A stretch of DNA of 64,000 nucleotides from an uncultured Pseudomonadota bacterium (GTDB lineage: Bacteria > Pseudomonadota > Alphaproteobacteria > Rs-D84), in assembly GCA_949283535.1 (NCBI GenBank), contig CASDTC010000004.1:4579-68578 (forward strand). The letters are read 5' to 3'. Both the position numbers and the translations under genes were made by a program. Of the stretch, positions 16,317 through 36,465 are shown in pieces (the stretch's first letter is position 1; each line of letters opens with the position of its first letter). Below the pieces are notes generated by a model. That model searched no databases. It saw nothing but the letters and a program-made list of their open reading frames with translations, and was not told where the DNA came from.

Positions 16317-17024
16317 ATGTCGCGGGATTATCCGAACAATTTTGATACGCCGGCGTTCCCGGCGGGCAAGTCTGTTGCATTGGCGCGATTTATGGCAATT
16401 GCATCGTGCGTGATGTTTTTGCTGGTGATATTTATGTGCGTGTTGGTGCTGTGGGGGGCGCGTTCGCAACGCATTGATCCATTTATTGTATCGATTGATA
16501 ATCTGACAGGTCAATGGACCGTTGTTGGACATTCACACGAAAATGGTCCAATTGAATATTCGGCATTAAAATCAATCCAAGAATCTGTTATTGGAAATTT
16601 CGCCGCAGATTGGTTTGCAATATCTGGGAACGATGATGAAAATAATCGCATATGGAAAACATGCGATCGCGATGTGGACTGTGGTGAAAATAATACACGC
16701 CCATATGGGGATAAAACATGTGAATTATATTGCATCAGTGGCGAAGACTTGTTTTCTGGGTTCGTATACGATGTTATCCCAGATTATCAAATGCGTGTGG
16801 AAAATGGCGAACGGTGGATTATTGATAAATCAGAAATTCAACTGGAACCAGCGGGCGACATAACAGTAAACGGTGGAACATGGCGAATGTCGGCAACAAT
16901 TCAATCAAATATCAATGGCGATATAAATATTGTTGCATTTATAAAAGTTGCCAGAAATACAGATAAATATTCACAAACATTGGGATATTATGTTGCAGAT
17001 TTTAATGCGTACAAGATAAATTGA
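16317..17024 (+). CDS. VirB8-like type IV secretion inner-membrane protein
   Basis: Short cytoplasmic N-terminus and one TM segment. Periplasmic domain has IVSIDNLTGQWTVVG (compare VirB8 IRVDNATGIVDVV) and C-terminal LGYYVADFNAY (compare NPLGFQVTSYRAD). Confidence 0.45.
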   Translation: MSRDYPNNFDTPAFPAGKSVALARFMAIASCVMFLLVIFMCVLVLWGARSQRIDPFIVSIDNLTGQWTVVGHSHENGPIEYSALKSIQESVIGNFAADWFAISGNDDENNRIWKTCDRDVDCGENNTRPYGDKTCELYCISGEDLFSGFVYDVIPDYQMRVENGERWIIDKSEIQLEPAGDITVNGGTWRMSATIQSNINGDINIVAFIKVARNTDKYSQTLGYYVADFNAYKIN

Positions 17025-19690: not shown

Positions 19691-19972
19691 TTATTGTATC
19701 ACTGCGGTTTTTATCATGGCAACATCTTCACGAATTGTATCGATTTTTATCTGTAATTGCCCGATACCGGTTTCCAGAATTGTTGTTCGGTTTTCTAGTG
19801 CGGTCAAGCGATGATCCGCACGATCCAGTTCCGCCAATGACGAATCCTGGCGTGCGACCCAATAAATCATGCCGGCAATAAATGCAATTAAAAACCAACT
19901 GTTGCGTAAAAAATCCAGTACCCCCATTGCCGTGGAACCCGTTTGTGTTGTCATCTTACTTACCCCGTTCAA
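19691..19972 (-). CDS. small membrane/coiled-coil protein (phage-associated)
   Basis: TM segment followed by a coiled coil. Lies downstream of the portal gene. Confidence 0.35.
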   Translation of the reverse strand: MNGVSKMTTQTGSTAMGVLDFLRNSWFLIAFIAGMIYWVARQDSSLAELDRADHRLTALENRTTILETGIGQLQIKIDTIREDVAMIKTAVIQ

Positions 19973-20147
19973 TCATGCTTTCAATTTGATGAACCAGGGC
20001 GCGTTGTGCTTCCAGTCCACGCAATTGCGCATCGGTGGCGTCTGGTCCCAATACGCGTTCAATTGTGATTTTACGCAAATGCCGCAATACCGCCGCCCCA
20101 GCCGATGTTGAAAATGTACGCGTATAATTTTGTTCTAAATCTTTCAT
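19956..20147 (-). CDS. small hypothetical protein (phage-associated)
   Basis: 63-aa ORF directly downstream of the portal gene, same strand. Confidence 0.25.
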   Translation of the reverse strand: MKDLEQNYTRTFSTSAGAAVLRHLRKITIERVLGPDATDAQLRGLEAQRALVHQIESMIERGK

Positions 20148-20163: not shown

Positions 20164-21387
20164 TTAAATTAATGTTTCTTCGATTGCCATTTGTGCGATT
20201 GGCGCGATATATTTTAATTCTGTATCACTGTGCAGTGATATTTTATCAATCACGCCACGGCGCGATAAAATCTGCAATCCGCGTTCAACCAATGGGCGAA
20301 TAAATTCATGCAACAGTCGTCCATATGTCGCCCCCAGAATTCGCATCATATCCGCATTGCGCGCCATGATTTCAGTGGCAGTCATTTCTTTTTCACTTAA
20401 CAGCCCTAATCTGTCCGCCAGTAATGCATGACGAATCCGTTCACGCAAATCTTTTAATACAATCTGGGACACATCGAAATCTGCCCCAGATGATAATGGT
20501 GTCAGACCAGATGAACCAACCGCCTTTGGTATTATCGCCCCCGGGGTCAGATTTATATTCGACAGATTTATAACGCCGTCATCATCCGCCTGCCATATGC
20601 CAGAAACAGCAATTGTTGCGTTCTTTAAAACCAATTCAACGACTTTGTTCGCGGTTTTTATATCTGGCAATGCACGCAATACGGGACCACGCCCATATTG
20701 TTCACCACTGGCAACCGACCAACGAAATATTATGTATGGATTCGTTTCAAATTTGCCCGTTGATACAATATTGTTTTCAATATTACCGCCAACATCCAAC
20801 CATGCGGTAAAGTCTGTATCAATTAAACTTTGTACCAAACGCAATGGGGTTTCCGGATTATTCTTTATTTCATCACGCAGGTTTGCCGGCGGCGTCCATG
20901 TTGGGTATTTTTCCAGTACTTCACGTGCGGGCATCGTTGCCGTGTGAAATACAGCACCATTTAATGTTGCAATATCACGCATTGGAATCGCAGTAAATGA
21001 AAACGCAGATGCCGCACCAATCGGATTTTCCGCCATAAACAGGCATGCTGTCCCCAGTATTATTAAATCCATATAACATTGATGAATTGTTGTATAGAAA
21101 TTTGAATCATTCAGATTTGCACGCAATGCCATTGTTGCCGCGGCGGCATCTGGGGAATCAGCACTTTCTGGGACCAATGATATCCACAGTGATTCTGGTG
21201 GTGTCAGCAATGAATAAATTGATGCCGCCAGATTGTCAACCGCATCGGCGGCGGTGGCATCAAATAATGTTGCGGCATCGTCATCCGCCGTTGGCATGGT
21301 ATAGCGCAACGCACTGTCCCATCTGTTTAACCATGGCGCACGCAAATCTATCGCGCGCCGATACATTTGTTCAAGATTTTTATGCAT
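20164..21387 (-). CDS. phage portal (head-to-tail connector) protein
   Basis: About 408 aa from MHKNLEQMYRRAIDLRAPWLNRW..., podovirus connector-like. Lies 20 nt downstream of the terminase nuclease half. Confidence 0.55.
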   Translation of the reverse strand: MHKNLEQMYRRAIDLRAPWLNRWDSALRYTMPTADDDAATLFDATAADAVDNLAASIYSLLTPPESLWISLVPESADSPDAAAATMALRANLNDSNFYTTIHQCYMDLIILGTACLFMAENPIGAASAFSFTAIPMRDIATLNGAVFHTATMPAREVLEKYPTWTPPANLRDEIKNNPETPLRLVQSLIDTDFTAWLDVGGNIENNIVSTGKFETNPYIIFRWSVASGEQYGRGPVLRALPDIKTANKVVELVLKNATIAVSGIWQADDDGVINLSNINLTPGAIIPKAVGSSGLTPLSSGADFDVSQIVLKDLRERIRHALLADRLGLLSEKEMTATEIMARNADMMRILGATYGRLLHEFIRPLVERGLQILSRRGVIDKISLHSDTELKYIAPIAQMAIEETLI

Positions 21388-21406
21388 GAATTTTTCCTTT
21401 TGTCTG

Positions 21407-22255
21407 CTAAATTTTAAATTCTGTGTTTGCTGTAAATGGGCGGGTGCGTTGCCCCAATGGGCGTACAGGAATTGGTTGTGCACAAATTGCGCCGGCAACC
21501 GCGTCCAGTCCGTCATCATGCCCCAGCCCGCCCAATGGCGACCAACCTAACATTTCTGCAATCAATGGGGTCGCCTGGATACGCTGGTGTGCGTACAGCC
21601 GTCCTGTTGTTAAAACAGGTTCAATCGCATCTAAAATTCTGGATTCTTTGTTTTTATGATTGGTTATGTTAACTATATTAACCGATGTACCGCGATTACG
21701 CGCAACATCACGCATGATTTCAGGCAATGCATTTCCAATACCATTTGTTTCAATGCATATTCGATGTATACTGTGGTGTTGTAAAAAGCCCAATACCATT
21801 TCACACTGGCGTGCCAATGGATGTAATTCTGTATCTGGAACAATTAAATACAGCGCATCATGAATAAATATACATCTGTTTTTATCATCACGGTACAATA
21901 ATACACAAACACTGGCGTCTGATTTTTTACGTCCAGACGATGGATCCCAATATGCCGCCGCGCCTGTTATTAAATGTTCGCCAATGCTGGCGGTATTCAT
22001 ATTAAATTCTGCATCGTATAAATGCAATGCATCTGGGTCCAGGCGGGCGCGTTCAGGCGCAACAAATTCCAACATCATTTGCGCGGAAAAATATCGTGCG
22101 CCAACAGCATGGCGCATTTCATCAATACGCGAAATCGGAAACATTTCTGGCCATGCAGGTGTGCCGTCCCTTGAAATTACAGGTATTTTTAATTCACGAT
22201 ACCCACGCAAAAAAGGCGTTGAAAAAACAAAATTTTTAGATACCATATCTGACAT
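21407..22255 (-). CDS. phage terminase large subunit, C-terminal nuclease half (split gene)
   Basis: RNase-H-like nuclease motifs GRKKSDASVCVLLY and C-terminal GHDDGLDA. Has its own ATG. The N-terminal ATPase half lies 3.3 kb upstream on the same strand. Confidence 0.7.
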   Translation of the reverse strand: MSDMVSKNFVFSTPFLRGYRELKIPVISRDGTPAWPEMFPISRIDEMRHAVGARYFSAQMMLEFVAPERARLDPDALHLYDAEFNMNTASIGEHLITGAAAYWDPSSGRKKSDASVCVLLYRDDKNRCIFIHDALYLIVPDTELHPLARQCEMVLGFLQHHSIHRICIETNGIGNALPEIMRDVARNRGTSVNIVNITNHKNKESRILDAIEPVLTTGRLYAHQRIQATPLIAEMLGWSPLGGLGHDDGLDAVAGAICAQPIPVRPLGQRTRPFTANTEFKI

Positions 22256-23810
22256 GGATTTTACCCCAAAAACATTACCAACAAATCTGGAAGCAGAACA
22301 GGCGGTATTGGCGGCTGTTCTGATGAATAATCGCGCGTTGGAACGCGTGTCTGAATTTTTAAAACCGGAACATTTTTCACATCCGGCACACCAAGAAATT
22401 TACAAACTGGCACAACGACAATTTGCCGCCGGTATTCCGTTTGATATAATCACGGCAAAAAATTATCTGGATCAACAAGGAACCCTGGAATCTGTTGGCG
22501 GTGTTGATTATTTAACCCAATTGGCAGGTGCAGGTGCAACAGTTGTAAATGTTGAACAATACGGTCGCATCGTTTATGAAAATGCAATGCGGCGCGAATT
22601 AATTAACCTGGGGCAATCAATTACAGATGCTGCATTTGTCGAAGATTTAGACAATCCTGTATCTGCACAAATCGAAACCGCCGAACAAAAACTGTTTGAA
22701 ATGGCGTCCAGCGGTGTTTCCGAACGCGAAGTGTCATCAATCGCAACCGCATTGCAAAGCGCCCTGCAAGAAGCAGAAATTGCATACAAGGCAGATGGTA
22801 AATTATCTGGTTTGACAACTGGGTTAAATGCATTAGATAAATCAATCAGTGGGTTGCACCATTCTGATTTAATTATAATTGCGGGGCGTCCTGCAATGGG
22901 TAAAACAACACTGGCAATGAATATCGCATTTAATGCCGCAAATGCAATTCTGTATGGACGCGCAAATGAAAAGTACAAAGGCGCAGTTGCATTTTTCAGT
23001 CTGGAAATGTCGGCATCGCAACTGGCGGCGCGCGTGTTATCATCACAATCCAAAATCCCCGCATCTGCCATGCGCGAAGGTTCATTGACCGATGAAGACT
23101 TTTTAAAAATGTCCCAATATTCATCCGCAATTGGCAAGGTACCATTATATATTGATGATACCCCGGGAATGTCGGTACCAATGATACGAACACGCGCACG
23201 GCGTCTGGCGCGTAAATGCGGCGGAATTGCATTAATCGTAATTGACTATCTGCAATTAATGACATCTCCGGGTGGGCGCCGCAACGATAACCGTGTCCAA
23301 GAAATATCTGAAATCACACGTGGGCTGAAAATGTTGGCAAAAGAATTAGATGTCCCGGTTATCGCCCTGTCCCAGTTGTCGCGCAGTGTGGAATCCCGCG
23401 ATGACAAGCGCCCACAACTGGCAGACTTGCGTGAATCTGGTTCAATTGAACAAGACGCCGATATTGTTATGTTCACATATCGTGAAGAATACTATCTGGA
23501 AAATCGTGATCCATCACAACGCATTTCAGGAAACGCAAATGATAAAATTATCGAAAGTTATCAAAAGCGTTTGGAACGCGCACGCGGTAAAGCCGATGTT
23601 ATAATCGGTAAAAACCGTCATGGTCGACCAGAAACGGTGCATTTGGCGTTCTTTGGCGATTACAGTCTGTTTGATAATTTGGACGAAATTGATGCACGCG
23701 GAATGAACGAATTTTCCGCCCAGCAACAAAGCACACCACAAATTGGTGATGAAGATTTCGAACCAACACCAATTGATACAGATGCAATCCCTGATGATAT
23801 GCCGTTGTAA
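22254..23810 (+). CDS. dnaB: replicative DNA helicase DnaB with an acidic C-terminal extension
   Basis: N-terminal EAEQAVLAAVLMNN, Walker A GRPAMGKTT, KNRHGRPETVHLAF near the C-terminus, then an acidic tail of about 45 aa. ATG overlaps the divergent start of the terminase nuclease half by 2 nt. Confidence 0.85.
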   Translation: MDFTPKTLPTNLEAEQAVLAAVLMNNRALERVSEFLKPEHFSHPAHQEIYKLAQRQFAAGIPFDIITAKNYLDQQGTLESVGGVDYLTQLAGAGATVVNVEQYGRIVYENAMRRELINLGQSITDAAFVEDLDNPVSAQIETAEQKLFEMASSGVSEREVSSIATALQSALQEAEIAYKADGKLSGLTTGLNALDKSISGLHHSDLIIIAGRPAMGKTTLAMNIAFNAANAILYGRANEKYKGAVAFFSLEMSASQLAARVLSSQSKIPASAMREGSLTDEDFLKMSQYSSAIGKVPLYIDDTPGMSVPMIRTRARRLARKCGGIALIVIDYLQLMTSPGGRRNDNRVQEISEITRGLKMLAKELDVPVIALSQLSRSVESRDDKRPQLADLRESGSIEQDADIVMFTYREEYYLENRDPSQRISGNANDKIIESYQKRLERARGKADVIIGKNRHGRPETVHLAFFGDYSLFDNLDEIDARGMNEFSAQQQSTPQIGDEDFEPTPIDTDAIPDDMPL

Positions 23811-23879
23811 AATATTTTCTGCTTGCCATATTTCTGAAAATTGACTAATATTTTGTCAAGAATTGACAAGGAGTTTGCG

Positions 23880-24887
23880 ATGGCCCAAGAAGAAATAATT
23901 TTCCCAAATAATATCAGAAACATTCGATTGGCAAACGGCATGAAGATGACCGAGTTGGCACGCCAGGCAAATTTGTCTTTATCTGCAGTATCCAAGATAG
24001 AAAAAGGTGTTCGCCGTTTAAACCAAAAACAGTTATTGAATATCTGCAATATTTTAGGCTGTAAACTGTCGGATATTTTTATCAAAGAATCTGACGATGT
24101 TGCCGGACAATGGCAAAATGAAATTAAGCGCAGATTAAATGATAACGAAGACAGTGGGCTGAAAATATTTGGCAGCGGGCTGCGCAAAATCAGGCAACAA
24201 TCTGGTAAAACAATTGCCCAGGCGGCAAAAGATGCAGGTATGACATTGTCTGTATATCATAAGATAGAAGTTGGGCAACGCGAAATATATCAAAATGAAA
24301 TCGAGCCATTGGCAAAATCTTTTTCTTATACAGTTGGCGATATGTTTGATAAAATCGCTGCAATGTATAAATCGGGTGAATTAAACAAACAAATTAATAA
24401 GGTTAAGGAACGCGTTAAATCTGTTCTGATTCCGGGCAGTCCATTGTCTGGTATTGACATGCACAGCAGTCTGTATGGTGCAAAACTGTATGACAGTGCG
24501 CGTAAAAAATTGGTTCCTGTATTTGGCACGCCATCTGGCAAATCAATCACTTTTAAAAAATCAGATAAAACCATGATTGTTGCCCCAATGCCACTGGAAG
24601 GACATAAAGGAATTTACGCCGTAATCCCAAATTCAAAACGATTGGGTGGTTTTATTCCTGAAAAATCATATGTATTTGCAGATGCAGATACGCCCGCAGC
24701 GGTTGGTGATTTGGCGGTATGTATCGATACCGATTTTAATTCAATGGATTCAAATGATGTTGCAACCGCACAAATTGTCAGTGTCCGCCAGGATTCCAGG
24801 GGCAAAATATACGGGCAAATCGCATCACCCGAAGAAAAAATTATTGGCAAAAACATGCACAAGGTTGTTATGATTGTAATGGAATAA
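23880..24887 (+). CDS. CI/LexA-like repressor with tandem XRE HTH domains and a C-terminal S24-peptidase-like domain
   Basis: Two HTH_3 modules (MKMTELARQANLSLSAVSKIEKG and KTIAQAAKDAGMTLSVYHKIEVG). C-terminal beta-rich domain with an LexA-like layout. RBS aaggag. Confidence 0.55.
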   Translation: MAQEEIIFPNNIRNIRLANGMKMTELARQANLSLSAVSKIEKGVRRLNQKQLLNICNILGCKLSDIFIKESDDVAGQWQNEIKRRLNDNEDSGLKIFGSGLRKIRQQSGKTIAQAAKDAGMTLSVYHKIEVGQREIYQNEIEPLAKSFSYTVGDMFDKIAAMYKSGELNKQINKVKERVKSVLIPGSPLSGIDMHSSLYGAKLYDSARKKLVPVFGTPSGKSITFKKSDKTMIVAPMPLEGHKGIYAVIPNSKRLGGFIPEKSYVFADADTPAAVGDLAVCIDTDFNSMDSNDVATAQIVSVRQDSRGKIYGQIASPEEKIIGKNMHKVVMIVME

Positions 24888-24911
24888 CATTTCTGTACAG
24901 GGGGGACAAAA

Positions 24912-25592
24912 ATGAACGCAAAAGCCAGCACAACCGCACAAAAATTATTAAACCTGTATCGCCAAGAACATGTTATTTTCGGCGGATGGGCAGCCGTTAA
25001 TCAGGTCTTTGTCAATGAAGCCACCCCAGAAATCTTGCGCGAATTACGCGAATTGCCAACCGGAAAAAATCTGATAAAACATATTGAAAACCTGCGCAGT
25101 GGTAAAACAAAAATGGATTCCATTGAACGCGAACTGTTGCCGTATGGTGGATTAATGGCGGAAACCATTGCAACCGTACCGTTGACATCGAATGAATGGA
25201 ATGAATTAGAATCTGGGATAAATTCATTTACCACCGACCAAGAAGGATTAGACCGAATACAACAATTAAATGTTATAAAAAAATTTGGCGACCAATGGAT
25301 TGTTGCAATACGTGCGGCATTATCAGAACGACCAGATTTATTAGAAAAATGGTCAATCGTTACAAAAACATATCGTGCATATTATTTATGGAAGGTTGCC
25401 AGCGATATGCTGAACCAACCATTATCTGAACGCGCACGCGCACAATTACAGGCCGACATGCCAGAATATGAAACATATCTGCCAATGTTTGGCGATAAGG
25501 GTACAGAACTGTTAGAAAAACTGCGTTCATTTATTACAACGATGAAACCGATTGAAACAGATAACGCCCCAGATGCCCCAACATCTATCTAG
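24912..25592 (+). CDS. hypothetical protein
   Basis: 226 aa with no recognisable motifs. Stops converge on the terminase ATPase half with a 4-nt overlap. Confidence 0.45.
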   Translation: MNAKASTTAQKLLNLYRQEHVIFGGWAAVNQVFVNEATPEILRELRELPTGKNLIKHIENLRSGKTKMDSIERELLPYGGLMAETIATVPLTSNEWNELESGINSFTTDQEGLDRIQQLNVIKKFGDQWIVAIRAALSERPDLLEKWSIVTKTYRAYYLWKVASDMLNQPLSERARAQLQADMPEYETYLPMFGDKGTELLEKLRSFITTMKPIETDNAPDAPTSI

Positions 25593-26245
25593 CCCCCATC
25601 GTTATCATGTGTTCTGTAAATCGTATCCATTGTATGTGGTGTGCCAATATATAACATTGTCCCAGTGGGGGATAAAATAAAATCCAATTCACGCAATCGT
25701 TCCCGCAATGCCGTGCGTTTTTGTGTGGTGTTTGATGTGTTTGGGACCTCTATATCATCACAAATAATTAAATCTGCACGCATTCCTGTAATATTGCCAT
25801 GAATGCCTTGGCACATAACGGATGGTTCGCGTATTCCAATCGCACGATTTATGGTTATTCGACCATTTGCCCATTCTTTTTTATTTTTAGGAATCAGATT
25901 TGCACATCGTGGATGATTTTCCAATATATGACGAATATGCGATACCATACGCGTTGCCAAACTGTTTTCAGCAGACAATATCAGGATTCTGGTTTCTGGG
26001 TACAGGTATAAAATACATGCTGCAAATATACCAACAACTGTTGATTTACCAGAATGCCGAAATGCCATCAACAACCCACGATGCGGTGGCGTTTCCCATA
26101 TTGATACTAAAAATTCCATGATTCGCCGGTGATGTGCCGGCGTGGTCAGTCCCAATATATCGTTCCATTCATCCAGAAATTCATAAAACGCCGTAATCAT
26201 CGCGATTTTCATTTGGTGCAGGTTCTGTAATACTGCCATAATCAT
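25589..26245 (-). CDS. phage terminase large subunit, N-terminal ATPase half (split gene)
   Basis: Walker A AFRHSGKST, Walker B ADLIICDD, coupling motif YIGTPHT. Ends shortly after the ATPase domain. Confidence 0.7.
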   Translation of the reverse strand: MIMAVLQNLHQMKIAMITAFYEFLDEWNDILGLTTPAHHRRIMEFLVSIWETPPHRGLLMAFRHSGKSTVVGIFAACILYLYPETRILILSAENSLATRMVSHIRHILENHPRCANLIPKNKKEWANGRITINRAIGIREPSVMCQGIHGNITGMRADLIICDDIEVPNTSNTTQKRTALRERLRELDFILSPTGTMLYIGTPHTMDTIYRTHDNDGG

Positions 26246-26729
26246 TTATTAATTTTGGCAATGCATTTTCCAGAACAGATACCAAATTCCCATACAATCC
26301 CATTACCGCCCCACCGGTTAGTTTATCTTGGATAACACTTAAATTATATTCCAAAAATGCCATCACATTATTGTGGGTGTTTTTCCATTCGGTTAAATCA
26401 ATATCTATTTCATGTAAATCACGAAAGGCTTCGACCAAAAAATTAAAATCAGAATTTAAATTTTCTGGGTCTATTTTTGCAGTAGGCTGGTAATCAATAA
26501 CACGCGTTAATGCAATTTGGCGAAAAATATCAATTTGTGCGCCTGATTCTGGGGCAATGGGGAAGACAACCGTGCCACCATCAAAATCGTCATTTGCAAC
26601 AACCGCATAATTTGCAGAATCCATAACAGATTCATTAATCGCAACCCGAACATCTGCATCCTGGAAAAAAGGGAATGCAAAAATATACTGCGTTGTTTCG
26701 CCATCGCCGGTATATGATACTTTATACAT
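26181..26729 (-). CDS. T7 gp17-like tail fibre, N-terminal tail-attachment domain only
   Basis: MYKVSYTGDGETTQYIFAFPFFQDADVRVAIN resembles T7 gp17 VLTYQLDGSNRDFNIPFEYLARKFVVVTLIG. Only 182 aa. 3' end overlaps the terminase ATPase half out of frame. Confidence 0.45.
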   Translation of the reverse strand: MYKVSYTGDGETTQYIFAFPFFQDADVRVAINESVMDSANYAVVANDDFDGGTVVFPIAPESGAQIDIFRQIALTRVIDYQPTAKIDPENLNSDFNFLVEAFRDLHEIDIDLTEWKNTHNNVMAFLEYNLSVIQDKLTGGAVMGLYGNLVSVLENALPKLINDYGSITEPAPNENRDDYGVL

Positions 26730-26743
26730 TTTATTCCCCGTTT

Positions 26744-27091
26744 TTATCCGACCAAATCATCAAATTTATCCAATAATGTTTGCAACAGGTTTGGACGCTG
26801 TGCTTTAGTTTGTTTTAATTTTTCCATATTTGCACGGCGGCGTTCATTATATGGTTGCGCTGTTTCAGATTGCAATCTTTTCAACACCGCGCCAGTTGAC
26901 ATACTGCGTCCAGATACACCAGACGCGCCATATTTTGCACGTTGGGTTGCCAATGCTTTTTTTACCAGGTTTGTTTTTTCACGCTCGTCCGCCGCCATAT
27001 CAGATAAAATTTGTTGGCGGGTGTTTTCAGCCTGTTGTTTTGAATCCTTGTAATCTAAAATACTTTTTACATCTGATACCAATTGTCCCAT
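26744..27091 (-). CDS. coiled-coil virion-associated hypothetical protein
   Basis: 115 aa, predicted helical, sits between tail tubular B and the fibre stub. Confidence 0.35.
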   Translation of the reverse strand: MGQLVSDVKSILDYKDSKQQAENTRQQILSDMAADEREKTNLVKKALATQRAKYGASGVSGRSMSTGAVLKRLQSETAQPYNERRRANMEKLKQTKAQRPNLLQTLLDKFDDLVG

Positions 27092-27114
27092 TGTATTTAC
27101 CCCTTGGATTAAAT

Positions 27115-28830
27115 TTATACTATGTAATATCCGTACATCGATACAGACAAAATTGTTGATGGTAATTGTTCACTGCTGGAAATTTTCCATGGCGCATTTA
27201 TACAATTACGTTGAACCCCCAGTAAATTTACAGATACATCACCACTGTATCCAGATGACGCGTCATCGTATATATCGTTCGGCAATGATGCGCGCGCGTC
27301 ATTTATAAATAATGTTTTTGTATTTAAAACCCGCGCAGATATTTTACGAATTTTCAATTTGTTCGCATTATGACCAGACGCACGCAGCGGCATTGCCGCC
27401 GCAGCAAACGAAAAACCATATTGACCCGCATCGTTTAATGCAGTATCTGAAAATTTTTCCAGAAAATAATTCGCACCCCGGGCAACAACCGTATATGTTT
27501 GACCATCCAGTGTCGCAACAGATTTAAATTGACCCTGGGTTTTATATTGCGCCCATGCAGAAATCCCCAATGCAGAATTCTGATTTAAAACCGCCATATC
27601 GCCATCTGACATTACAACAAATAATTGCCGGGTATTATCATTATATGATAAATCAACCGGATCACGCATTAAATGCTTTGCCGCGGCACATAAATCATTT
27701 GCATTATAATATTCGCCCAATTGATCCAAGCTTAATTCACGAATGTCTTTTTTACCCGCAGATATGAATACGGTTGCCCCCTCTATCTTTTGTGGCGGCA
27801 GATATCTGGACGCAACGCTGCCAACAGATGTGTGTTGTTTTATATCAACCGCCGATGGTGTTAATGGCTTGCTGGAAATCGCCCATTCACCAGCATTTGT
27901 TAAAATTTGTAAATTATCGCTGCTGACAACTGTGCATATCTGTTGACGCTGTTGCGACAGTAATGTTAAAAAGATGGCTTCATCATCCAGACCAGTTCCA
28001 ACATTAAAATTATTATGCCGTCCAACACGCGACATCCATACGCCACTGGGCCATGCACGCGAACCACCAAACACCAATCTGTCTTGATGAAATGTAATAC
28101 TGCACGGCCAGCCACGGCGCGTGCTGAATGCCGCTTCGTACCAATCGGATACCGGGTCTGATGGTATTGAATATGTGCCGTTTGTATATGCATACACAAC
28201 CGTTGGACTGACATATTCTGTGATTATCCATTGTTTATCCAGTAATAAAAAGCGCCCGTCTTCATTTTCAGATGTCCAAAAATTTTTATTTGTTGTAAAT
28301 GTTGCATAGTTATTACCACTGGCATTTGATGATACTGTTATCTTTATGCCATCTGCATCATCAAATTTCATAAACGGTATATTTACAGTCATATCAGAAT
28401 CATTGCGTTCAAAGTCAAATGCAATGATATCAAATGTGCTGTCTGTTTTCTGTAATACATATGGTTGATAATCTGGATGAACAAATATCATTGTGCCAAA
28501 TCGCTGGGCATATTGCAATTTATCCAATTCATCAAAATCCCATGGTGCAAATAAATCTGCAATACGAACATCATCGCTGTACACTAAAATATGTCCATCT
28601 GTTAAAACCAGCAAGTAATTTTCTGATTCGCCAACAGAAAACGGTATCAGACGCGCCGATGACGATAAATTTGCAACAGACGCCAATCCACGGCGCCGTT
28701 GTAACCCACCCCCCGCCAGCACATCCATATTTTCCAATCGCGACAAACCATTTAAATTATCGCGGGCAAAAAATTCTGGCGCGACTTCACCGTCTGCAAA
28801 TGAATTCTGTGTTTTTATAAAATCGCCCAT
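27115..28830 (-). CDS. T7 gp12-like tail tubular protein B
   Basis: N-terminus GDFIKTQNSFADGEVAPEFFARDNL...GLQRRRGL matches T7 gp12 ISQSIKNLKGGISQQPDILRYPDQ...GLQKRPPL. 571 aa. Confidence 0.6.
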   Translation of the reverse strand: MGDFIKTQNSFADGEVAPEFFARDNLNGLSRLENMDVLAGGGLQRRRGLASVANLSSSARLIPFSVGESENYLLVLTDGHILVYSDDVRIADLFAPWDFDELDKLQYAQRFGTMIFVHPDYQPYVLQKTDSTFDIIAFDFERNDSDMTVNIPFMKFDDADGIKITVSSNASGNNYATFTTNKNFWTSENEDGRFLLLDKQWIITEYVSPTVVYAYTNGTYSIPSDPVSDWYEAAFSTRRGWPCSITFHQDRLVFGGSRAWPSGVWMSRVGRHNNFNVGTGLDDEAIFLTLLSQQRQQICTVVSSDNLQILTNAGEWAISSKPLTPSAVDIKQHTSVGSVASRYLPPQKIEGATVFISAGKKDIRELSLDQLGEYYNANDLCAAAKHLMRDPVDLSYNDNTRQLFVVMSDGDMAVLNQNSALGISAWAQYKTQGQFKSVATLDGQTYTVVARGANYFLEKFSDTALNDAGQYGFSFAAAAMPLRASGHNANKLKIRKISARVLNTKTLFINDARASLPNDIYDDASSGYSGDVSVNLLGVQRNCINAPWKISSSEQLPSTILSVSMYGYYIV

Positions 28831-28846
28831 TTATCCCCCCCTGTAA

Positions 28847-29365
28847 TTAAAATCGCGTATTTATCAAAGAAAAATTTTTTATCCCTGCTGTCGGTGCAGA
28901 CGCACTGTCAATATATTTTGCAGATTGTAATTCTGTTTCATATAACGCCGCCAACATTCTGAATACCGTTTGTTCACCAATTAGCGGAATGCAAAATTCC
29001 ATTGCCAATTTCGTTGCCACCAATGATACAAAATAACTGGGGAATAATTCAGGCGCGACACGAATAATTGCGGTTATATTTATTGTATCTGTCGGTGCAA
29101 TAACCGTATTTCCGATTATTTCACCATTGCACTTTAAAACGCGCAAAATATCCGCAGGCAATAAAAATTCGCCATCATTATTTTTGGTCAATTCAAAACA
29201 TTTACATGCAAATCGCCATGGATGCATTGCCAGTAATGCATCAACCACTGGGTCAAATAAAGTTCGCCCCAATTGCGCCGCGGGCGTGTCATCCAGTAAT
29301 GATTGTATCGGTTTTTCACCCAATTTTAACAGCGCCATTGAACATAAATCTATTTTTGTATGCAT
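28847..29365 (-). CDS. T7 gp11-like tail tubular protein A
   Basis: MALLKLGEKPIQSLLDD matches gp11 ILASIGEPPVSTLEGD. 172 aa. Confidence 0.55.
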   Translation of the reverse strand: MHTKIDLCSMALLKLGEKPIQSLLDDTPAAQLGRTLFDPVVDALLAMHPWRFACKCFELTKNNDGEFLLPADILRVLKCNGEIIGNTVIAPTDTINITAIIRVAPELFPSYFVSLVATKLAMEFCIPLIGEQTVFRMLAALYETELQSAKYIDSASAPTAGIKNFSLINTRF

Positions 29366-29675: not shown

Positions 29676-30512
29676 TTAATCACCAGTTTCATCAGTATCT
29701 TTGCATTTCAAACGAACAATGCCGGCATTATCAATCAATACAGCGCCCTGGGACATACTGTTGCTGATAAAGTGCGCAGCGCGTTCACCATGCCATGATA
29801 TATCCGTTTTTACTTCTTGACCGCATGCATGACCAATGCTGGTTGCATGATAAATAAAGCAATCACGATTATCTGTGCTGGTTAATGGCAAACTGTTATA
29901 CATTACCCATGTTATCCCCAGCCATTTCTTGGATGCACCCCCAGACACCAATGGCAAATCGTTACCAACATAATCCGCAGATACAAATTCGTCCATGGAC
30001 AGTAATTCATTCCATTGGTGTACGCCAACAACAGCAAAACGACGACCATCATCAGGAACATCGTTCTGATTTAAAACTTCGACCGCTGATAAAATTAAAT
30101 CCTTGGTCAGCCCTGTTGAATAATCACCTGTTGCATTTGTTGCGCTATTCATTGCATTCACAATCAATTCATCTGTCTTGCGCCCCAATGCATATGCACC
30201 TGCAGATGCAACAACACGGCGTTCATCAACATTCGTTTTCAATTCATCCAATGCATCAACCCAATCACCGGCATAGTAATCTTGCAATATACATTCAACA
30301 GGTTCATGATTTAAATTCATAACCGGTACAATACCATGACGCGACTTTGTGGCGGCGGTACCGCGTCCAACCTTTTGAAAAGTTGTCGATGCCCCAACAA
30401 CACCGGATTTGCTGCGTACTGTTGCGCGCAATTTTGTACCCATTTGCTGATACGCCAAATGTACATCCGCTTCGAATTGTTTGATAAAAACCTGATCTAC
30501 TGAAACAGACAT
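29676..30512 (-). CDS. major capsid protein (T7 gp10-like)
   Basis: DQVFIKQFEADVHLAYQQ...TVRSKSGVVGASTTFQKVGRGTAAT resembles gp10 ALFLKVFGGEVLTAFAR...MVRSISSGKSAQFPVLGRTQAAY. Lies directly downstream of the scaffold gene. Confidence 0.55.
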   Translation of the reverse strand: MSVSVDQVFIKQFEADVHLAYQQMGTKLRATVRSKSGVVGASTTFQKVGRGTAATKSRHGIVPVMNLNHEPVECILQDYYAGDWVDALDELKTNVDERRVVASAGAYALGRKTDELIVNAMNSATNATGDYSTGLTKDLILSAVEVLNQNDVPDDGRRFAVVGVHQWNELLSMDEFVSADYVGNDLPLVSGGASKKWLGITWVMYNSLPLTSTDNRDCFIYHATSIGHACGQEVKTDISWHGERAAHFISNSMSQGAVLIDNAGIVRLKCKDTDETGD

Positions 30513-30718
30513 TATTTATTTCCCTTGGTTAAAAAAATTAAAACAAGCGCCAATATGCGCCGATAAAATTTTGTATTATGGTTATGCAATTTAATTGCGC
30601 CATTTAACAAAACATGCGGGTCCACACGGGATTGTCCAAATAAAAAATATTCAGTCAGACTGATATAATCCGACTGAATATTTCAAAATAAAAATCCCCG
30701 CAATTGCGGGGAATTATA

Positions 30719-31090
30719 TTATTTTCTTTTTGCACATGTTTTTTTTGCCGCTGGCTTTTTCGCCGCAACTTTTTTAACAGGTGCCTTTTTTACTGCTGCC
30801 TTTGCGACTGGTTTTTTCGCCGCAACTTTTTTTGCAACCGTTTTTTTTGCAACCGTTTTTTTTGCAACTGGCTTTTTCACTGCAACTTTCTTTGCCGCTG
30901 GTTTCTTGGCAACCGCAACTTTTTTAACAGCCGGTTTTTTCGCTGCAACTTTTTTTACAGCAGGCTTTTTTGCAACTGGTTTCTTTGCCACGGCAACTTT
31001 CTTTGCCGCAGGTTTCTTTGCAGCCGGTTTTGCCGCTGGCTTTTTCGCAGCAGGTTTTTTGGCGGCTGGCTTTAAGAATGTGAATGCCAT
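30719..31090 (-). CDS. lysine/alanine-rich histone H1-like DNA-binding protein
   Basis: MAFTFLKP followed by about 20 KPAAKK/KKVAVAKKP repeats. Good RBS ggagagaag. Not a CRISPR array despite the nucleotide periodicity. Confidence 0.7.
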   Translation of the reverse strand: MAFTFLKPAAKKPAAKKPAAKPAAKKPAAKKVAVAKKPVAKKPAVKKVAAKKPAVKKVAVAKKPAAKKVAVKKPVAKKTVAKKTVAKKVAAKKPVAKAAVKKAPVKKVAAKKPAAKKTCAKRK

Positions 31091-31196
31091 TCTTCTCTCC
31101 TTCTTCATTTTTTGGATAGAACAAATTTGTTTTGTTCTTACTTTATATTTTATATGAAACAAAAATATTAGTAAAGAAGAAAGTGCATTTTTTTCA

Positions 31197-31853
31197 TTAC
31201 GAATATAATTTTTTAAATCCATTTTCTATTTTGCGAACATATTCTGGATCATAATCACGCCAATATTTTGGATCACGCATCATGCGACGCAATTCAGAAT
31301 CAGATAAATTTTTTATATCTTCATCATCGGTACGAACACTGGGTTCCATCGATTGCATCATTCGGTATACGCCTTGGATTCCCTGGGGTGTGGCACATAA
31401 TGCATCAAATGCATCACGCGGTAAATATTTTTGTCCGAATGAATTTATTGCGCGTAATGCATCATTCATTTTTTCTGTTGTGCCAAAAAAATTTTTTAAT
31501 TCTGCAATTGCATTTGATTCATTTTGCATATCAAATAATTCTGTTAATACGGGTGATAAAAATTCTTCGGCAATTTGATAAATTTTTTCAACCTGGGTTG
31601 ATGTTAATCCAATTTCAAAAAATTTTTCACGCACTGCGTCATCATCAAATAACTGATTCGTTGGATATTCTGATGCAGATTCTGGAACACCAATTGCACG
31701 ATTAAATTTTGCACGCGATGCACCATCAGCATCATTGCCAGGCACAGATATCATCGTTCCAATTTTCTTTTCTAATTCAATATATGATTTTAACAACGCA
31801 TCTGTGTTTAATGTTCCGTCTTTATTCAGAAATTTTTCTGGAATGTTTTCCAT
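31197..31853 (-). CDS. capsid assembly scaffolding-like protein
   Basis: 219 aa, helical and acidic, positioned like T7 gp9 immediately upstream of the capsid gene. Confidence 0.45.
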   Translation of the reverse strand: MENIPEKFLNKDGTLNTDALLKSYIELEKKIGTMISVPGNDADGASRAKFNRAIGVPESASEYPTNQLFDDDAVREKFFEIGLTSTQVEKIYQIAEEFLSPVLTELFDMQNESNAIAELKNFFGTTEKMNDALRAINSFGQKYLPRDAFDALCATPQGIQGVYRMMQSMEPSVRTDDEDIKNLSDSELRRMMRDPKYWRDYDPEYVRKIENGFKKLYS

Positions 31854-32043
31854 GTTTTTTTCCTTTGGTTTCACTGGATTTGCGCAAGAAATAAATTCCG
31901 CCCAATGTAAATACAGATTGCAACATAGTAAATATATCGGTATCGCCAACCATATATGCACCAATTGCAGACAATATACCAATTCCTGAAATGATATATG
32001 TTCGATGTCCGGATAAAAATCCGCCACTGATAATTTTTCGCAT
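31822..32043 (-). CDS. small membrane protein, possible holin
   Basis: 73 aa with TM segments (IISGIGILSAIGAYMV) and a charged C-terminus. Lies between the hydrolase and scaffold genes. Confidence 0.3.
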   Translation of the reverse strand: MRKIISGGFLSGHRTYIISGIGILSAIGAYMVGDTDIFTMLQSVFTLGGIYFLRKSSETKGKKHGKHSRKISE

Positions 32044-32056
32044 GATTGTTTTCCGA

Positions 32057-32467
32057 TTATAAATAAAACAACAGTCCATCTATATCTGCGATATATCCGC
32101 GCGATGTTGACCATGCCGGCATTTTATCTGCATGATGAAAACGCGTTGCGCCATTGCATGAATCTGGTAACGCGCCATGCAACATTCGTGATACCACACG
32201 CAGACACATCTGAAATTTATTGTCAGATGCATTAACAAACAATAATTTATTGTTTTCAGATTTTGAATCCAGTGAATTAAATAATTCTGAATCCGATATT
32301 ATATCTGAATAATCACGACCAGTGACATGGGCAATATTTGCAATCATTGATGCCATTGCTTCGACCAATCGTAATGTTGATGCATGTGTTTCAGCATATA
32401 CCACCCGTGCAATTTGATATAATATGGCGCGCGATTTATCTGGATTGTTTATCAGTGTTAATTGCAT
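32057..32467 (-). CDS. SleB-like cell wall hydrolase (Hydrolase_2 family)
   Basis: ARVVYAETHASTLRLVEAMASMIANIAH matches the A..VY.EA...E...G..AVA.VI.NR motif. Likely the endolysin of the phage cluster. Confidence 0.6.
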   Translation of the reverse strand: MQLTLINNPDKSRAILYQIARVVYAETHASTLRLVEAMASMIANIAHVTGRDYSDIISDSELFNSLDSKSENNKLLFVNASDNKFQMCLRVVSRMLHGALPDSCNGATRFHHADKMPAWSTSRGYIADIDGLLFYL

Positions 32468-32612
32468 TTGACAATCCCCCCGTTGTTGCAAATAAAAACG
32501 GCACGCAATAAATGCGTGCCATAAAATAAAAAATCCGCCATACGCGGACATAATCTTTCTGATTATGTGTTATATATTATCATAAATTGGATATAAAGTC
32601 AAGATAATATTT

Positions 32613-33293
32613 TCACATACTGATTTCGTCACCATATGCCAATAAATAACGCGTATCATTGCGCAGCACCAGCGCACCATTTTCATTAATTCCGATTAAT
32701 TCCATTTCTTCGCCACGATATTTCACTGTGCGATTTAATCCCGCCGCTAAATCCATCCAACGCGCGCGAACATCGACAAATGGTATGCGGCGCCACCGAT
32801 CCAGATTCTTCATCAAACGGTTTAATAATTCTGATTTTTCAACCGTGGCATAATTATCCAGTTTCGTTGTTTGATATGCGGCAACCGTTGGATTTGATTT
32901 TATATTTATTCCAATTCCGACAATAACAAATTGCCCCGCATATTCAATTAATATGCCACATACTTTTTTACCATCAATTAAAATATCATTTGGCCATTTT
33001 ATTTTTGGATGAATTCCAAACGAAATCAGTGTTTCTGCAACTGCGACCGCAACAACATATGACAATCGTGGGTCGCGTTCATCGGCATTATAAATAAAAC
33101 TGGCATACAAATTACCATGGTGCGACACCCATGTGCGCCGATATCGACCGCGTCCAGCGGATTGCGCCATTGCCATAATAACAGTATGATCACGCGCCGC
33201 GCCAGATGCAACCATTTCCAACGCATATGTCTGGGTACTGGGGATTTTATCAAAAGAAATCAATTTATAATTTGCCAATTGAATATACACCAT
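32613..33293 (-). CDS. birA: biotin--[acetyl-CoA-carboxylase] ligase
   Basis: QSAGRGRYRRTWVSHHGNLYAS signature and KIKWPNDI. No N-terminal HTH domain. Confidence 0.85.
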   Translation of the reverse strand: MVYIQLANYKLISFDKIPSTQTYALEMVASGAARDHTVIMAMAQSAGRGRYRRTWVSHHGNLYASFIYNADERDPRLSYVVAVAVAETLISFGIHPKIKWPNDILIDGKKVCGILIEYAGQFVIVGIGINIKSNPTVAAYQTTKLDNYATVEKSELLNRLMKNLDRWRRIPFVDVRARWMDLAAGLNRTVKYRGEEMELIGINENGALVLRNDTRYLLAYGDEISM

Positions 33294-35469: not shown

Positions 35470-36465
35470 TTGATTCAAGTCGCGATTTGTGATAAAATTA
35501 TTATGATGTCAAATATTGTTCTGGAATCTTTGTTAAAGCCCCTGGAAGAATTCTATAAACCATCGTTTGTAGAAGAAATTGCCATAAATCACGCTGGGGA
35601 AGTATGGATGCGCCTGCATGGCGCACGCGTGCCGTGGGTTGCATATAATGCCGAAGTTTTAACAAAACAATACTTAATCGATTTAATTCATACGGTCGCA
35701 AATATATATGAACGTCCATTTGACCCAATTCACGGCATGCCGGTTGTATACGCAACACTGCCTGGCAATCACAGATTTACAGCAATCGCGGGTCCAAATG
35801 TACAGTATGATGACCGCGATGTCACAGGTGGTGTTGCACTGAATATACGCGGAACATCGGCACCAGACACATCGTTTGAAAACTATCATTTAAAACGCGG
35901 TGCAAAATTGTTAAAGGTCAAACCGCGTGAATCTGTACGACCAGACGACCCATATGACAGATTAATGACCGCAATTAATGATGGCAGCCCAATTTTAATC
36001 AGTGGCGCAACTGCAACAGGAAAAACAACATTTTTAAATCATATGTTGAAATTAATCGATAAAAACAGTCGTGTTATTACTGTCGAAGACGCCCGCGAAA
36101 TCCAGGTCCCCCAACCAAACCATGTTCACTTTATTTTATCACGAACCGAACAAACAAACGATTTTAATTATGCGCGATTATTGGATTTGGTTGTTCGTAT
36201 GACACCTGATGTAATTATCGGCGGCGAAATATCAACGGATAACGCCGCCGTTTTGTGGGAAATGCTGGGGACAGGACATGACCATTTCTATACAACAATT
36301 CATGCCGAAAGCGCAGATGCCGCGTATGCTGCATTCGCAGACAGAATACTGCATACCCAGCCAGCATATGACCGAACAGACCTGATTGAAGAAATGAAAA
36401 AGAAAATACGCGTTGTACAATTATCACGCGATGGCGCCTTGCGCGCGGTAACAGAAGTGGTATAG
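35470..36465 (+). CDS. virB11: VirB11/TrbB-family type IV secretion traffic ATPase
   Basis: Walker A LISGATATGKTT, RVITVEDAREIQ, IIGGEI, His-box GTGHDHFYTTIHAES. 331 aa. The start may be the internal ATG at 35506. Confidence 0.7.
   Translation: MIQVAICDKIIMMSNIVLESLLKPLEEFYKPSFVEEIAINHAGEVWMRLHGARVPWVAYNAEVLTKQYLIDLIHTVANIYERPFDPIHGMPVVYATLPGNHRFTAIAGPNVQYDDRDVTGGVALNIRGTSAPDTSFENYHLKRGAKLLKVKPRESVRPDDPYDRLMTAINDGSPILISGATATGKTTFLNHMLKLIDKNSRVITVEDAREIQVPQPNHVHFILSRTEQTNDFNYARLLDLVVRMTPDVIIGGEISTDNAAVLWEMLGTGHDHFYTTIHAESADAAYAAFADRILHTQPAYDRTDLIEEMKKKIRVVQLSRDGALRAVTEVV

Follow-up and report, generated by a model that had tools for sequence, protein, structure and literature searches.

The locus described here lies in a stretch of 64,000 nucleotides (nt) from an uncultured alphaproteobacterium of the lineage Rs-D84 (assembly GCA_949283535.1, contig CASDTC010000004.1, positions 4,579 to 68,578; hereafter the window), in which a phage-type large terminase (TerL) is encoded by two separate open reading frames (ORFs) with an operon on the opposite strand between them. 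The five ORFs concerned are all present in the ORF list of the window, and the portal gene lies next to them on the terminase strand:

25589-26245, minus strand: terL-N, an ORF of 218 amino acids (aa) for a RecA-like ATPase core (Pfam Terminase_6N, 3e-7).
24912-25592, plus strand: hyp226, a conserved protein of 226 aa with no family match in Pfam, PHROG or NCBIfam.
23841-24887, plus strand: a 348-aa ORF for a regulator with two helix-turn-helix (HTH) domains (Pfam HTH_3).
22254-23810, plus strand: dnaB, 518 aa (Pfam DnaB 2e-31, DnaB_C 1e-100).
21407-22255, minus strand: terL-C, 282 aa, the end of the ATPase domain and an RNase H-like nuclease (Terminase-T7_RNaseH-like, PF22530, 9e-9).
20164-21519, minus strand: portal, a T7-type head-to-tail connector (Pfam Head-tail_con, PF12236, 8e-81).

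The junction sequences bear out the ORF coordinates of the initial annotation and the two overlaps reported with them. The dnaB ATG (22254-22256, plus strand) and the terL-C ATG (22253-22255, minus strand) overlap by 2 nt within the tetranucleotide CATG at 22253-22256, and the stop codons of TerL-N and hyp226 have the palindrome CTAG at 25589-25592 in common, a convergent overlap of 4 nt. Comparison across related loci assigns conserved start codons to M16 at 26200 for TerL-N, which makes it probably a protein of 203 aa, to M45 at 21387 for the portal and to M14 at 23880 for the HTH protein; that of terL-C may be M4. In place of a single polypeptide of about 480-590 aa uniting ATPase and nuclease there are two ORFs, each with its own start and stop codon, 3.3 kb apart. 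No second TerL, DnaB, portal or capsid gene was found within the 64-kb window, and the possibility raised at the outset of a second, complete TerL gene elsewhere thus gained no support there.

The reading of the two fragments as complementary pieces of one terminase was upheld by profiles, alignment and structure prediction alike. On the 500 positions of the NCBIfam model termin_lrg_T7 (NF033889), TerL-N occupies 2-195 with 229 bits, above the cutoff of 150, and TerL-C occupies 231-500 with 105 bits, below this cutoff, which is set for the whole protein; in PHROG phrog_38 they lie side by side at profile positions 267-459 and 466-700, respectively. Both halves thus match the same NCBIfam and PHROG profiles and not those of different terminase families. 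Residues 54-217 of TerL-N align to the TerL structures of the T7-like phage PhiV-1 (8DGC) and of T7 gp19 (4BIJ). A PDB sequence search with TerL-C alone gave no match, and its similarity was found via the predicted structure, for which Foldseek returned 8dgc_E as the best match (1e-11), followed by TerL nuclease domains. When the two sequences are concatenated, they align to the TerLs of T7-like phages as one piece spanning the junction, with 26-29% identity. TerL-N contains a Walker A motif (FRHSGKST), a Walker B motif with the catalytic glutamate (DLIICDDIE) and the coupling motif III (GTPH, as IGTPH), and its residues K52, D148, D149, E151 and G186-H189 do not vary in either split or intact relatives; TerL-C contains the motif GHDDGLDA, with W103-D104-P105, E169 and D247/D248/D251 invariant. 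The ATPase and nuclease motif residues are unchanged even against relatives of 35-45% identity. By these comparisons the two ORFs are adjacent, non-overlapping pieces of one T7-type TerL of about 485 aa together. The pair resembles the T7-type enzyme (gp19, or DNA maturase B; NF033889; 8DGC chain E, 4BIJ) in having all of its motifs, a colinear concatenation and a complete predicted fold, and differs from it in being encoded by two ORFs 3.3 kb apart and in its low identity to the TerLs of cultured phages.

The initial annotation had assumed that the break lies in the linker between clean ATPase and nuclease halves. The motifs are distributed as it stated; alignment to intact homologues and structure prediction, however, place the break inside the ATPase domain, and TerL-C also holds the last ~70 residues of that domain. 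Intact TerL relatives of 485-514 aa, which were gathered together with split ones in an exhaustive search with TerL-C as the query, are colinear with the two halves, residue 195 of TerL-N corresponding to residue ~199 and residue ~14 of TerL-C to residues ~203-212, so that only a short variable loop is absent at the break. The AlphaFold model of the concatenation is a complete TerL with a predicted local distance difference test score (pLDDT) of 92 and a predicted template modelling score (pTM) of 0.82; its confidence is lowest at residues 201-210, around the junction at 203/204, and past the junction it continues with a beta-strand (223-227), helices (244-263) and the nuclease from near residue 280. 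In Foldseek searches with this 485-aa model the aligned length was ~283 columns for ATPase-only chains (P74-26) and ~200-227 columns for nuclease-only chains, and in the model the ATPase domain reaches approximately residue 275. Because ATPase-only structures align over so many columns and the domain ends at ~275, the cut falls in a loop within the ATPase domain, between the motif III helix on one side and the last strand and lid on the other, ~70 residues from the domain end. TerL-N stops 8 residues past the helix with the sequence GTPHxxDTIY, and across the relatives the N-terminal halves stop 3-9 residues past GTPHxxxTIY. TerL-C accordingly consists of the last ATPase beta-strand and the lid (~aa 15-75) and the RNase H-like nuclease (~aa 75-260). 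Modelled alone it is disordered at aa 1-23 and 63-69, and the disorder of the N-terminal segment fits a segment that needs TerL-N in order to fold.

The split arrangement is not peculiar to the window. A species-level scan, with one genome per species and TerL-N as the query, returned 135 relatives, and the best 80 of the 135 are metagenome-assembled genomes (MAGs) from the guts of animals and humans, named Candidatus Enterousia or unclassified Alphaproteobacteria. Enterousia belongs to the uncultured order Rs-D84, with genome sizes of 0.75-1.0 Mb (PMC12306168). The Bartonella run-off-replication/BaGTA region was considered as an identity for the locus and rejected, the relatives being Candidatus Enterousia and Rs-D84 MAGs. 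Gene order in the relatives (denoted by L numbers below) was read by tblastn with all window proteins, and the architecture was counted only in loci with enough downstream DNA, namely 69 species representatives and 54 IMG/VR contigs. The order of genes is p172, p571, p115, tail fibre, TerL-N, the opposite-strand block of hyp226, HTH regulator and DnaB, and then TerL-C, portal, p63 and p93. TerL is split in this manner in 122 of the 123 loci (69/69 species representatives and 53/54 IMG/VR contigs), with 3276-3462 nt between the halves across the loci counted.

Both halves are under purifying selection, judging from the ratio of nonsynonymous to synonymous substitutions (dN/dS), calculated pairwise according to Nei-Gojobori and only for pairs with dS < 1.2. 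The ratio is 0.076 for TerL-N, with no in-frame stops in 81 loci, and 0.137 for TerL-C, with no in-frame stops in 69 loci; both are equal to or below that of lipB, a neighbouring host gene (0.139). The remaining genes give 0.058 (portal), 0.062 (capsid), 0.051 (DnaB), 0.066 (HTH protein), 0.09-0.18 (tail genes) and 0.18 (hyp226, which is present in 78 loci). A gene killed in the common ancestor of such divergent species would not look like this, and the proposal that the cassette inactivated the packaging enzyme is therefore rejected: the halves are free of stops, their dN/dS is low and their catalytic residues are invariant. The same observations, in 69-81 species-level loci with intact halves, fit the other proposal of the initial annotation, a terminase that works as two polypeptides.

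The initial annotation also implied that the operon had broken the gene, which is probably not the case. The exhaustive search with TerL-C recovered cluster representatives, at least 15 in number and ~272-300 aa long, whose start coincides with that of TerL-C, and between the halves in several of these lineages lies almost nothing, or something else:

L082: gap of 4 nt; the TerL-N stop is followed by the TerL-C ATG in another frame.
L171: gap of 268 nt, with TTGACA-16-TATAAT and a terminator-like hairpin.
L081: gap of ~490 nt without a long ORF.
L085: a 311-aa gene on the same strand in the gap; the portal gene is 10 kb off, past murJ and ftsZ.
L166: dnaB and an 834-aa gene in the gap, in place of the HTH and hyp226 genes.

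Because other lineages share the break with almost nothing or with other content in the gap, the split would be older than the dnaB cassette; on these comparisons it most likely predates the cassette, and a single origin of the split is likely. In the sequence of events that we propose, TerL would first have become two adjacent and probably translationally coupled ORFs, the gap between them would then have taken up different inserts in different lineages, and in the Enterousia lineage it would have been filled by the opposite-strand dnaB operon with the genes for DnaB, the double-HTH regulator and the 226-aa protein.

Three of these loci have further features of their own. At L082:520-545 the UGA of TerL-N is followed by AAAAAUG, and TerL-C lies in the +1 frame, which is open upstream; a +1 shift at the stop would fuse both ORFs, a configuration that may be a coincidence. 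The gap at L171:9733-10000 contains a near-consensus promoter followed after ~110 nt by a hairpin and a T-run, and may be a small RNA gene. In the AT-rich relative L085 (10886-20876), terL-C and portal are separated by ~10 kb of host genes, among them murJ, ftsZ and a gene for a CDP-alcohol phosphatidyltransferase, such that phage-derived genes are dispersed among essential host genes.

The cassette had been described as a replication and immunity cassette, and its helicase does not support a phage type for it. DnaB passes the alphaproteobacterial equivalog NF006606 (619 bits versus a cutoff of 540) and TIGR00665 (513 versus 385) and scores below the cutoff of the phage_DnaB model TIGR03600 (415 versus 499); by these profiles it is a replicative helicase of the cellular type. 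It is also the most conserved protein of the locus, with 78-98% aa identity. No second dnaB copy was found in the window or in any 20-kb locus of the relatives, and judging from genome size a second replicative helicase elsewhere in a genome of <1 Mb is unlikely, which would make this the sole dnaB copy. The acidic C-terminal tail noted earlier is present, with a length of 40 aa rather than ~45 (residues 479-518, window 23691-23810; 10 D/E and 1 K/R). In the window and in L001-L018 it has a variable middle and ends in a conserved (A/D)IPDDMPL, a sequence that recalls the partner-recruiting acidic-hydrophobic C-terminal tip of SSB (DDDIPF). The regulator had been labelled a CI-like repressor with tandem HTH and S24-like domains. 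Its two HTH_3 domains were recovered; Peptidase_S24 gave no Pfam match in residues 171-335 even at E<=10, the 165-aa C-terminal domain has no family match, and the CI-like label is not supported.

The start of terL-C appears to serve a second purpose. The synonymous-codon entropy averages 0.72 over the gene but falls to 0.06 across codons 1-15 and to 0.18 across codons 6-20, and no comparable trough was found in dnaB, HTH, hyp226, TerL-N or portal. The corresponding nucleotide block at 22185-22253 (plus strand; terL-C codons 1-~20) reads AAAAAAGGCGTTGAAAAA-N5-AAATTTTTAgATACCAT, and in an alignment of 72 loci the block AAAAAAGGCGTTGAAAAA-N5-AAATTTTTATATACyAT is at least 95% conserved at most positions. 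A selected nucleotide element thus overlaps terL-C. A promoter scan of the window places a -35 element TTGAAA at 22219-22224 and a -10 element TACCAT at 22241-22246, with a 16-nt spacer, and from consensus and conservation we infer that the block is a sigma-70-like dnaB promoter inside the first 12-16 terL-C codons. In the group to which the window belongs the dnaB ATG is 7 nt past the -10 element, and from this spacing a leaderless mRNA is predicted; 35 of the 72 loci have a leader of 15-18 nt with an AAGGA Shine-Dalgarno sequence before dnaB. With no intergenic space left, the dnaB promoter would have come to lie inside the start of terL-C. The simplest guess for the transcription of terL-C and portal is that transcripts of the structural operon upstream run on through the cassette in antisense, which is possible because no strong minus-strand terminator was found within the cassette.

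The terminase genes belong to a cluster of ~13 kb with head, tail and packaging genes of podovirus (T7) type, which runs on the minus strand from 32.5 to 19.7 kb in the order SleB-like hydrolase, T7-type scaffold, HC2-like protein, capsid, p172, p571, p115, a 182-aa protein and TerL-N. The remaining genes and the host gene that adjoins them are as follows:

32613-33293: lipB, a host gene upstream of the hydrolase.
29676-32551, minus strand: head and lysis genes (Phage_capsid_2 (PF19821) major capsid, HC2-like protein, T7-type scaffold and SleB-like cell-wall hydrolase).
26181-29365, minus strand: tail genes (p172, tubular-A-like, phrog_394; p571, nozzle/tubular-B-like, phrog_376; p115; the 182-aa protein).
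19691-20147, minus strand: two small genes at the operon end, for a Bbp19-like protein of 63 aa (p63) and a 93-aa protein (p93).

Among the tail genes, p115 has a faint match to T7 gp14, and the 182-aa protein has a T7 tail-fibre N-terminal domain; a strong terminator (19437-19411) follows the operon-end genes. The flanks are host genes, with lipB and an FKBP-type isomerase on one side and a YraN-family gene, and further out bamA, rseP, cdsA and uppS, on the other. Counted at a query coverage of at least 85%, lipB is present in 57 loci, and in the three loci in which its position was read (L010, L016 and L057) it is directly upstream of the hydrolase. Where lipB and DnaB are more diverged between loci, the cluster genes tend to be so too (Spearman 0.33-0.80 for pairwise distances), and no integrase, DNA polymerase, primase or adjacent tRNA was found around the cluster. 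The locus thus combines two hallmarks of a gene transfer agent (GTA): genes for structure and packaging but none for its own replication or integration, and a fixed position with apparent vertical inheritance and purifying selection (dN/dS 0.06-0.18) across host species.

Considering genes and relatives together, we regard it as probable that the locus is a domesticated, GTA-like cluster of podovirus type, fixed and selected in the chromosomes of Enterousia and relatives, whose TerL is made as two polypeptides and was split before the dnaB cassette arrived. TerL-N and TerL-C would reassemble non-covalently, and the strand at the N terminus of TerL-C would supply what the ATPase fold of TerL-N lacks. 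Several points weigh against this proposal. To our knowledge, activity of a TerL cut at this loop has never been demonstrated, and no small terminase was identified in the cluster. In the synonymous-entropy scan the 5' end of dnaB showed no conserved element from which terL-C could be driven, and the start region of terL-C is itself occupied by the dnaB promoter block. As regards the age and origin of the split, some of the ~275-aa split representatives are known from short contigs only, and in a weakly resolved neighbour-joining tree most split forms fall into two neighbouring clades. In one species (L057, 9683-14622) the cluster has been mostly lost through two deletions, of which one fused capsid aa 1-69 to fibre aa 112-182 and the other took out aa 90-282 of terL-C along with the portal and the first part of p63; an intact TerL-N, the dnaB cassette and the first 89 terL-C codons including the promoter block were kept. 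The element is therefore dispensable. Finally, two MAGs contain two diverged whole loci each, dnaB included: L016/L022 (JAZTWT01) and L010/L029 (JAFTTY01), with an aa distance of 14% between L010 and L029. These doubled loci may be mixed-species bins or a true duplication.

Four other explanations have to be weighed against the two-polypeptide terminase. The cassette may have killed the enzyme, in which case the cluster would be a decaying prophage remnant and the fragments would be retained only through their overlap with dnaB signals. The promoter block indeed constrains terL-C codons 1-16, and it is the cassette together with the first 89 terL-C codons that outlived the decay of the L057 cluster; synonymous constraint is, however, limited to the first ~20 terL-C codons, while purifying selection extends along both halves and every structural gene, the halves are free of stops in 69-81 species, the motifs Walker A, Walker B and III and the acidic residues of the nuclease are invariant, and other lineages have the same break but lack the cassette. 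Inactivation is very unlikely, the dN/dS values in particular speaking strongly against it. It is about as unlikely that the halves are functional but work apart, for example TerL-C as a nuclease on its own and TerL-N by supplying ATPase activity to a host process. The two genes are now neither adjacent nor translationally coupled, TerL-N evolves more slowly than TerL-C, and in L057 TerL-N is intact while terL-C is truncated; yet L057 is a single case, 122 of the 123 loci retain both halves alongside the genes for portal, capsid, scaffold and tail, and the ~70 N-terminal residues of TerL-C are elements of the ATPase domain, predicted to fold confidently only with TerL-N.

A third possibility is that the locus is an active mobile element, a functional temperate podophage or a satellite with its own DnaB and repressor. 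The 383 relatives in IMG/VR are listed as viral, and an HTH regulator and a helicase within the cluster resemble a phage early region. This reading has against it the lack of an integrase, DNA polymerase, primase, att-like repeats or adjacent tRNA, the presence of lipB in 57 loci (directly upstream in the three read), the covariation of distances with those of host genes, a DnaB that passes the cellular model and fails the phage_DnaB cutoff, and a complement of only ~10 kb of phage-type genes with at most 29% identity to cultured phages; we consider it unlikely. The last explanation, and an extremely unlikely one, is that a single TerL is restored, by excision of the 3.3 kb in producer cells (as with the skin and nifD elements), by RNA splicing of a group I or II intron or by a split intein. 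The ORFs of L082, 4 nt apart in different frames near a UGA and an A-run, could be taken in its favour, as could the herpesvirus UL15 gene, a terminase gene that is spliced and whose intron holds genes of the other strand. Each half of the present TerL, however, has its own start and stop codon. Excision would delete dnaB; a search for att-like direct or inverted repeats at the two junctions gave chance-level matches only, and the cassette encodes no recombinase. Splicing is contradicted by an insert that is coding and on the opposite strand, and neither the window nor the L081, L082 and L085 gaps gave an Rfam intron match at the gathering threshold or at E<=1. An intein would find no room: the 203+282 aa of the halves, against 485-514 aa in intact relatives, do not accommodate an N-intein of ~100 aa and a C-intein of ~35 aa that ends in HN before C/S/T, TerL-N ending 8 aa past the conserved helix and TerL-C starting ~14 aa before the conserved strand.

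The two-polypeptide, GTA-like interpretation finds partial parallels in known systems. Like the RcGTA-like agents, CcGTA and BaGTA, the cluster is compact, lacks replication and integration genes, is chromosomally fixed, looks vertically inherited and is under purifying selection. Relatives of this cluster also share interleaved host genes and an adjacent GTA_holin_3TM gene with the RcGTA-like GTAs. The differences are that those agents derive from a siphovirus of HK97 type and the present cluster from a podovirus of T7 type, without homology to RcGTA genes, and that TerL is split here. In the herpesvirus UL15 gene two exons flank the opposite-strand genes UL16 and UL17 and are joined by mRNA splicing; it is similar in having a lineage-wide opposite-strand block in a terminase gene and dissimilar in being spliced and in its break point, and is an architectural parallel only. 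The FpGTA of Faecalibacterium prausnitzii, the only podovirus-like GTA that our literature search returned and one that we compared by the available part of its description, is a gut GTA-like element with a proposed podovirus-like morphology and experimental evidence of packaging (PMC12946183). It belongs to another phylum, its packaging has been shown, and that part of the description contains no split terminase (PMC12946183). In Jug and crAss-like phages terL is broken by group I introns or inteins and restored by splicing, and as here the fragments concatenate to a full TerL; unlike here, the fragments are co-transcribed and the inserts are on the same strand and carry homing endonucleases, whereas the present insert is a cellular operon on the opposite strand (PMC12880540). 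The large terminase of the Parabacteroides phage phiPDS1 is annotated as two coding sequences that represent two domains, for which, according to the authors, an error of codon table or assembly was possible; its two coding sequences are adjacent, and conservation and selection were not part of that analysis (PMC10773633). A literature search on T7-like GTAs, split terminases and Enterousia phage elements returned no description of this locus, and when IMG/VR was scanned for a split TerL in true phages, nothing but close relatives of the same locus came up.

The large terminase is usually treated as an obligate single-chain motor and as a universal phylogenetic marker of tailed phages. Here selection has kept one with a cut in its ATPase domain in more than 100 species. 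If the split enzyme is active, an ATPase core and a lid-plus-nuclease can assemble in trans, and the locus would be a natural fragment-complementation experiment for motor mechanics. It also points to a previously undescribed podovirus-type, GTA-like family in uncultured gut alphaproteobacteria of <1 Mb, in whose genomes every retained kilobase is informative, and it offers a concrete example of an essential gene whose likely promoter is inside a phage-derived gene. It is conceivable, although doubtful, that the arrangement acts as a switch, in which terL-C, the portal and the end of the particle operon could be transcribed only in antisense through the dnaB operon. Making particles would then shut the helicase off, and dnaB transcription from the promoter inside terL-C would in turn block leaky expression of the packaging enzyme. 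If true, a decision between replication on the one hand and packaging and lysis on the other would be hard-wired in 5 kb of DNA, which a terminase able to work as two proteins would have made possible. In practical terms, virus-calling pipelines label this host locus as viral in IMG/VR, terminase searches will meet two half-length fragments, and users of virome databases should heed the cellular dnaB inside IMG/VR viral contigs of the locus. The 383 relatives held there as viral contigs (L088-L167 among them) are mostly provirus calls of 10-12 kb that include the cellular dnaB.

Related clusters with other arrangements were also encountered. L170 (3368-12806), on a chromosomal contig of 1.3 Mb, has an intact TerL of 485 aa together with capsid, tail genes, hydrolase and GTA_holin_3TM (PF11351), with no portal or scaffold called within a 21-kb stretch, and points to a wider family of podovirus-type domesticated clusters. 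The cluster of L087, likewise with an intact TerL, adjoins dnaX and recR. In L168, which also has an intact TerL, a host-type gene lies between scaffold and capsid, and host genes are also interleaved in L085 and L171.

Within the window, the gene between scaffold and capsid (30719-31222, minus strand) encodes a Lys/Ala/Pro-rich repeat protein of 167 aa with a match to Pfam HC2, histone H1-like (1.6e-15). It is fast-evolving, varies in length from locus to locus and might be DNA-condensing or scaffold-associated. Strong hairpins are found near the capsid gene, namely an 18-bp stem at 30684-30644, a bidirectional GC hairpin at 30695-30712 and, immediately past the end of the gene, a terminator at 29414-29395, and together suggest attenuation favouring capsid transcripts. 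At some distance the cluster is flanked by genes for a VirB8-like protein (16317-17024, plus strand) and a secretion ATPase of T2SSE/VirB11 type (35470-36465, plus strand).

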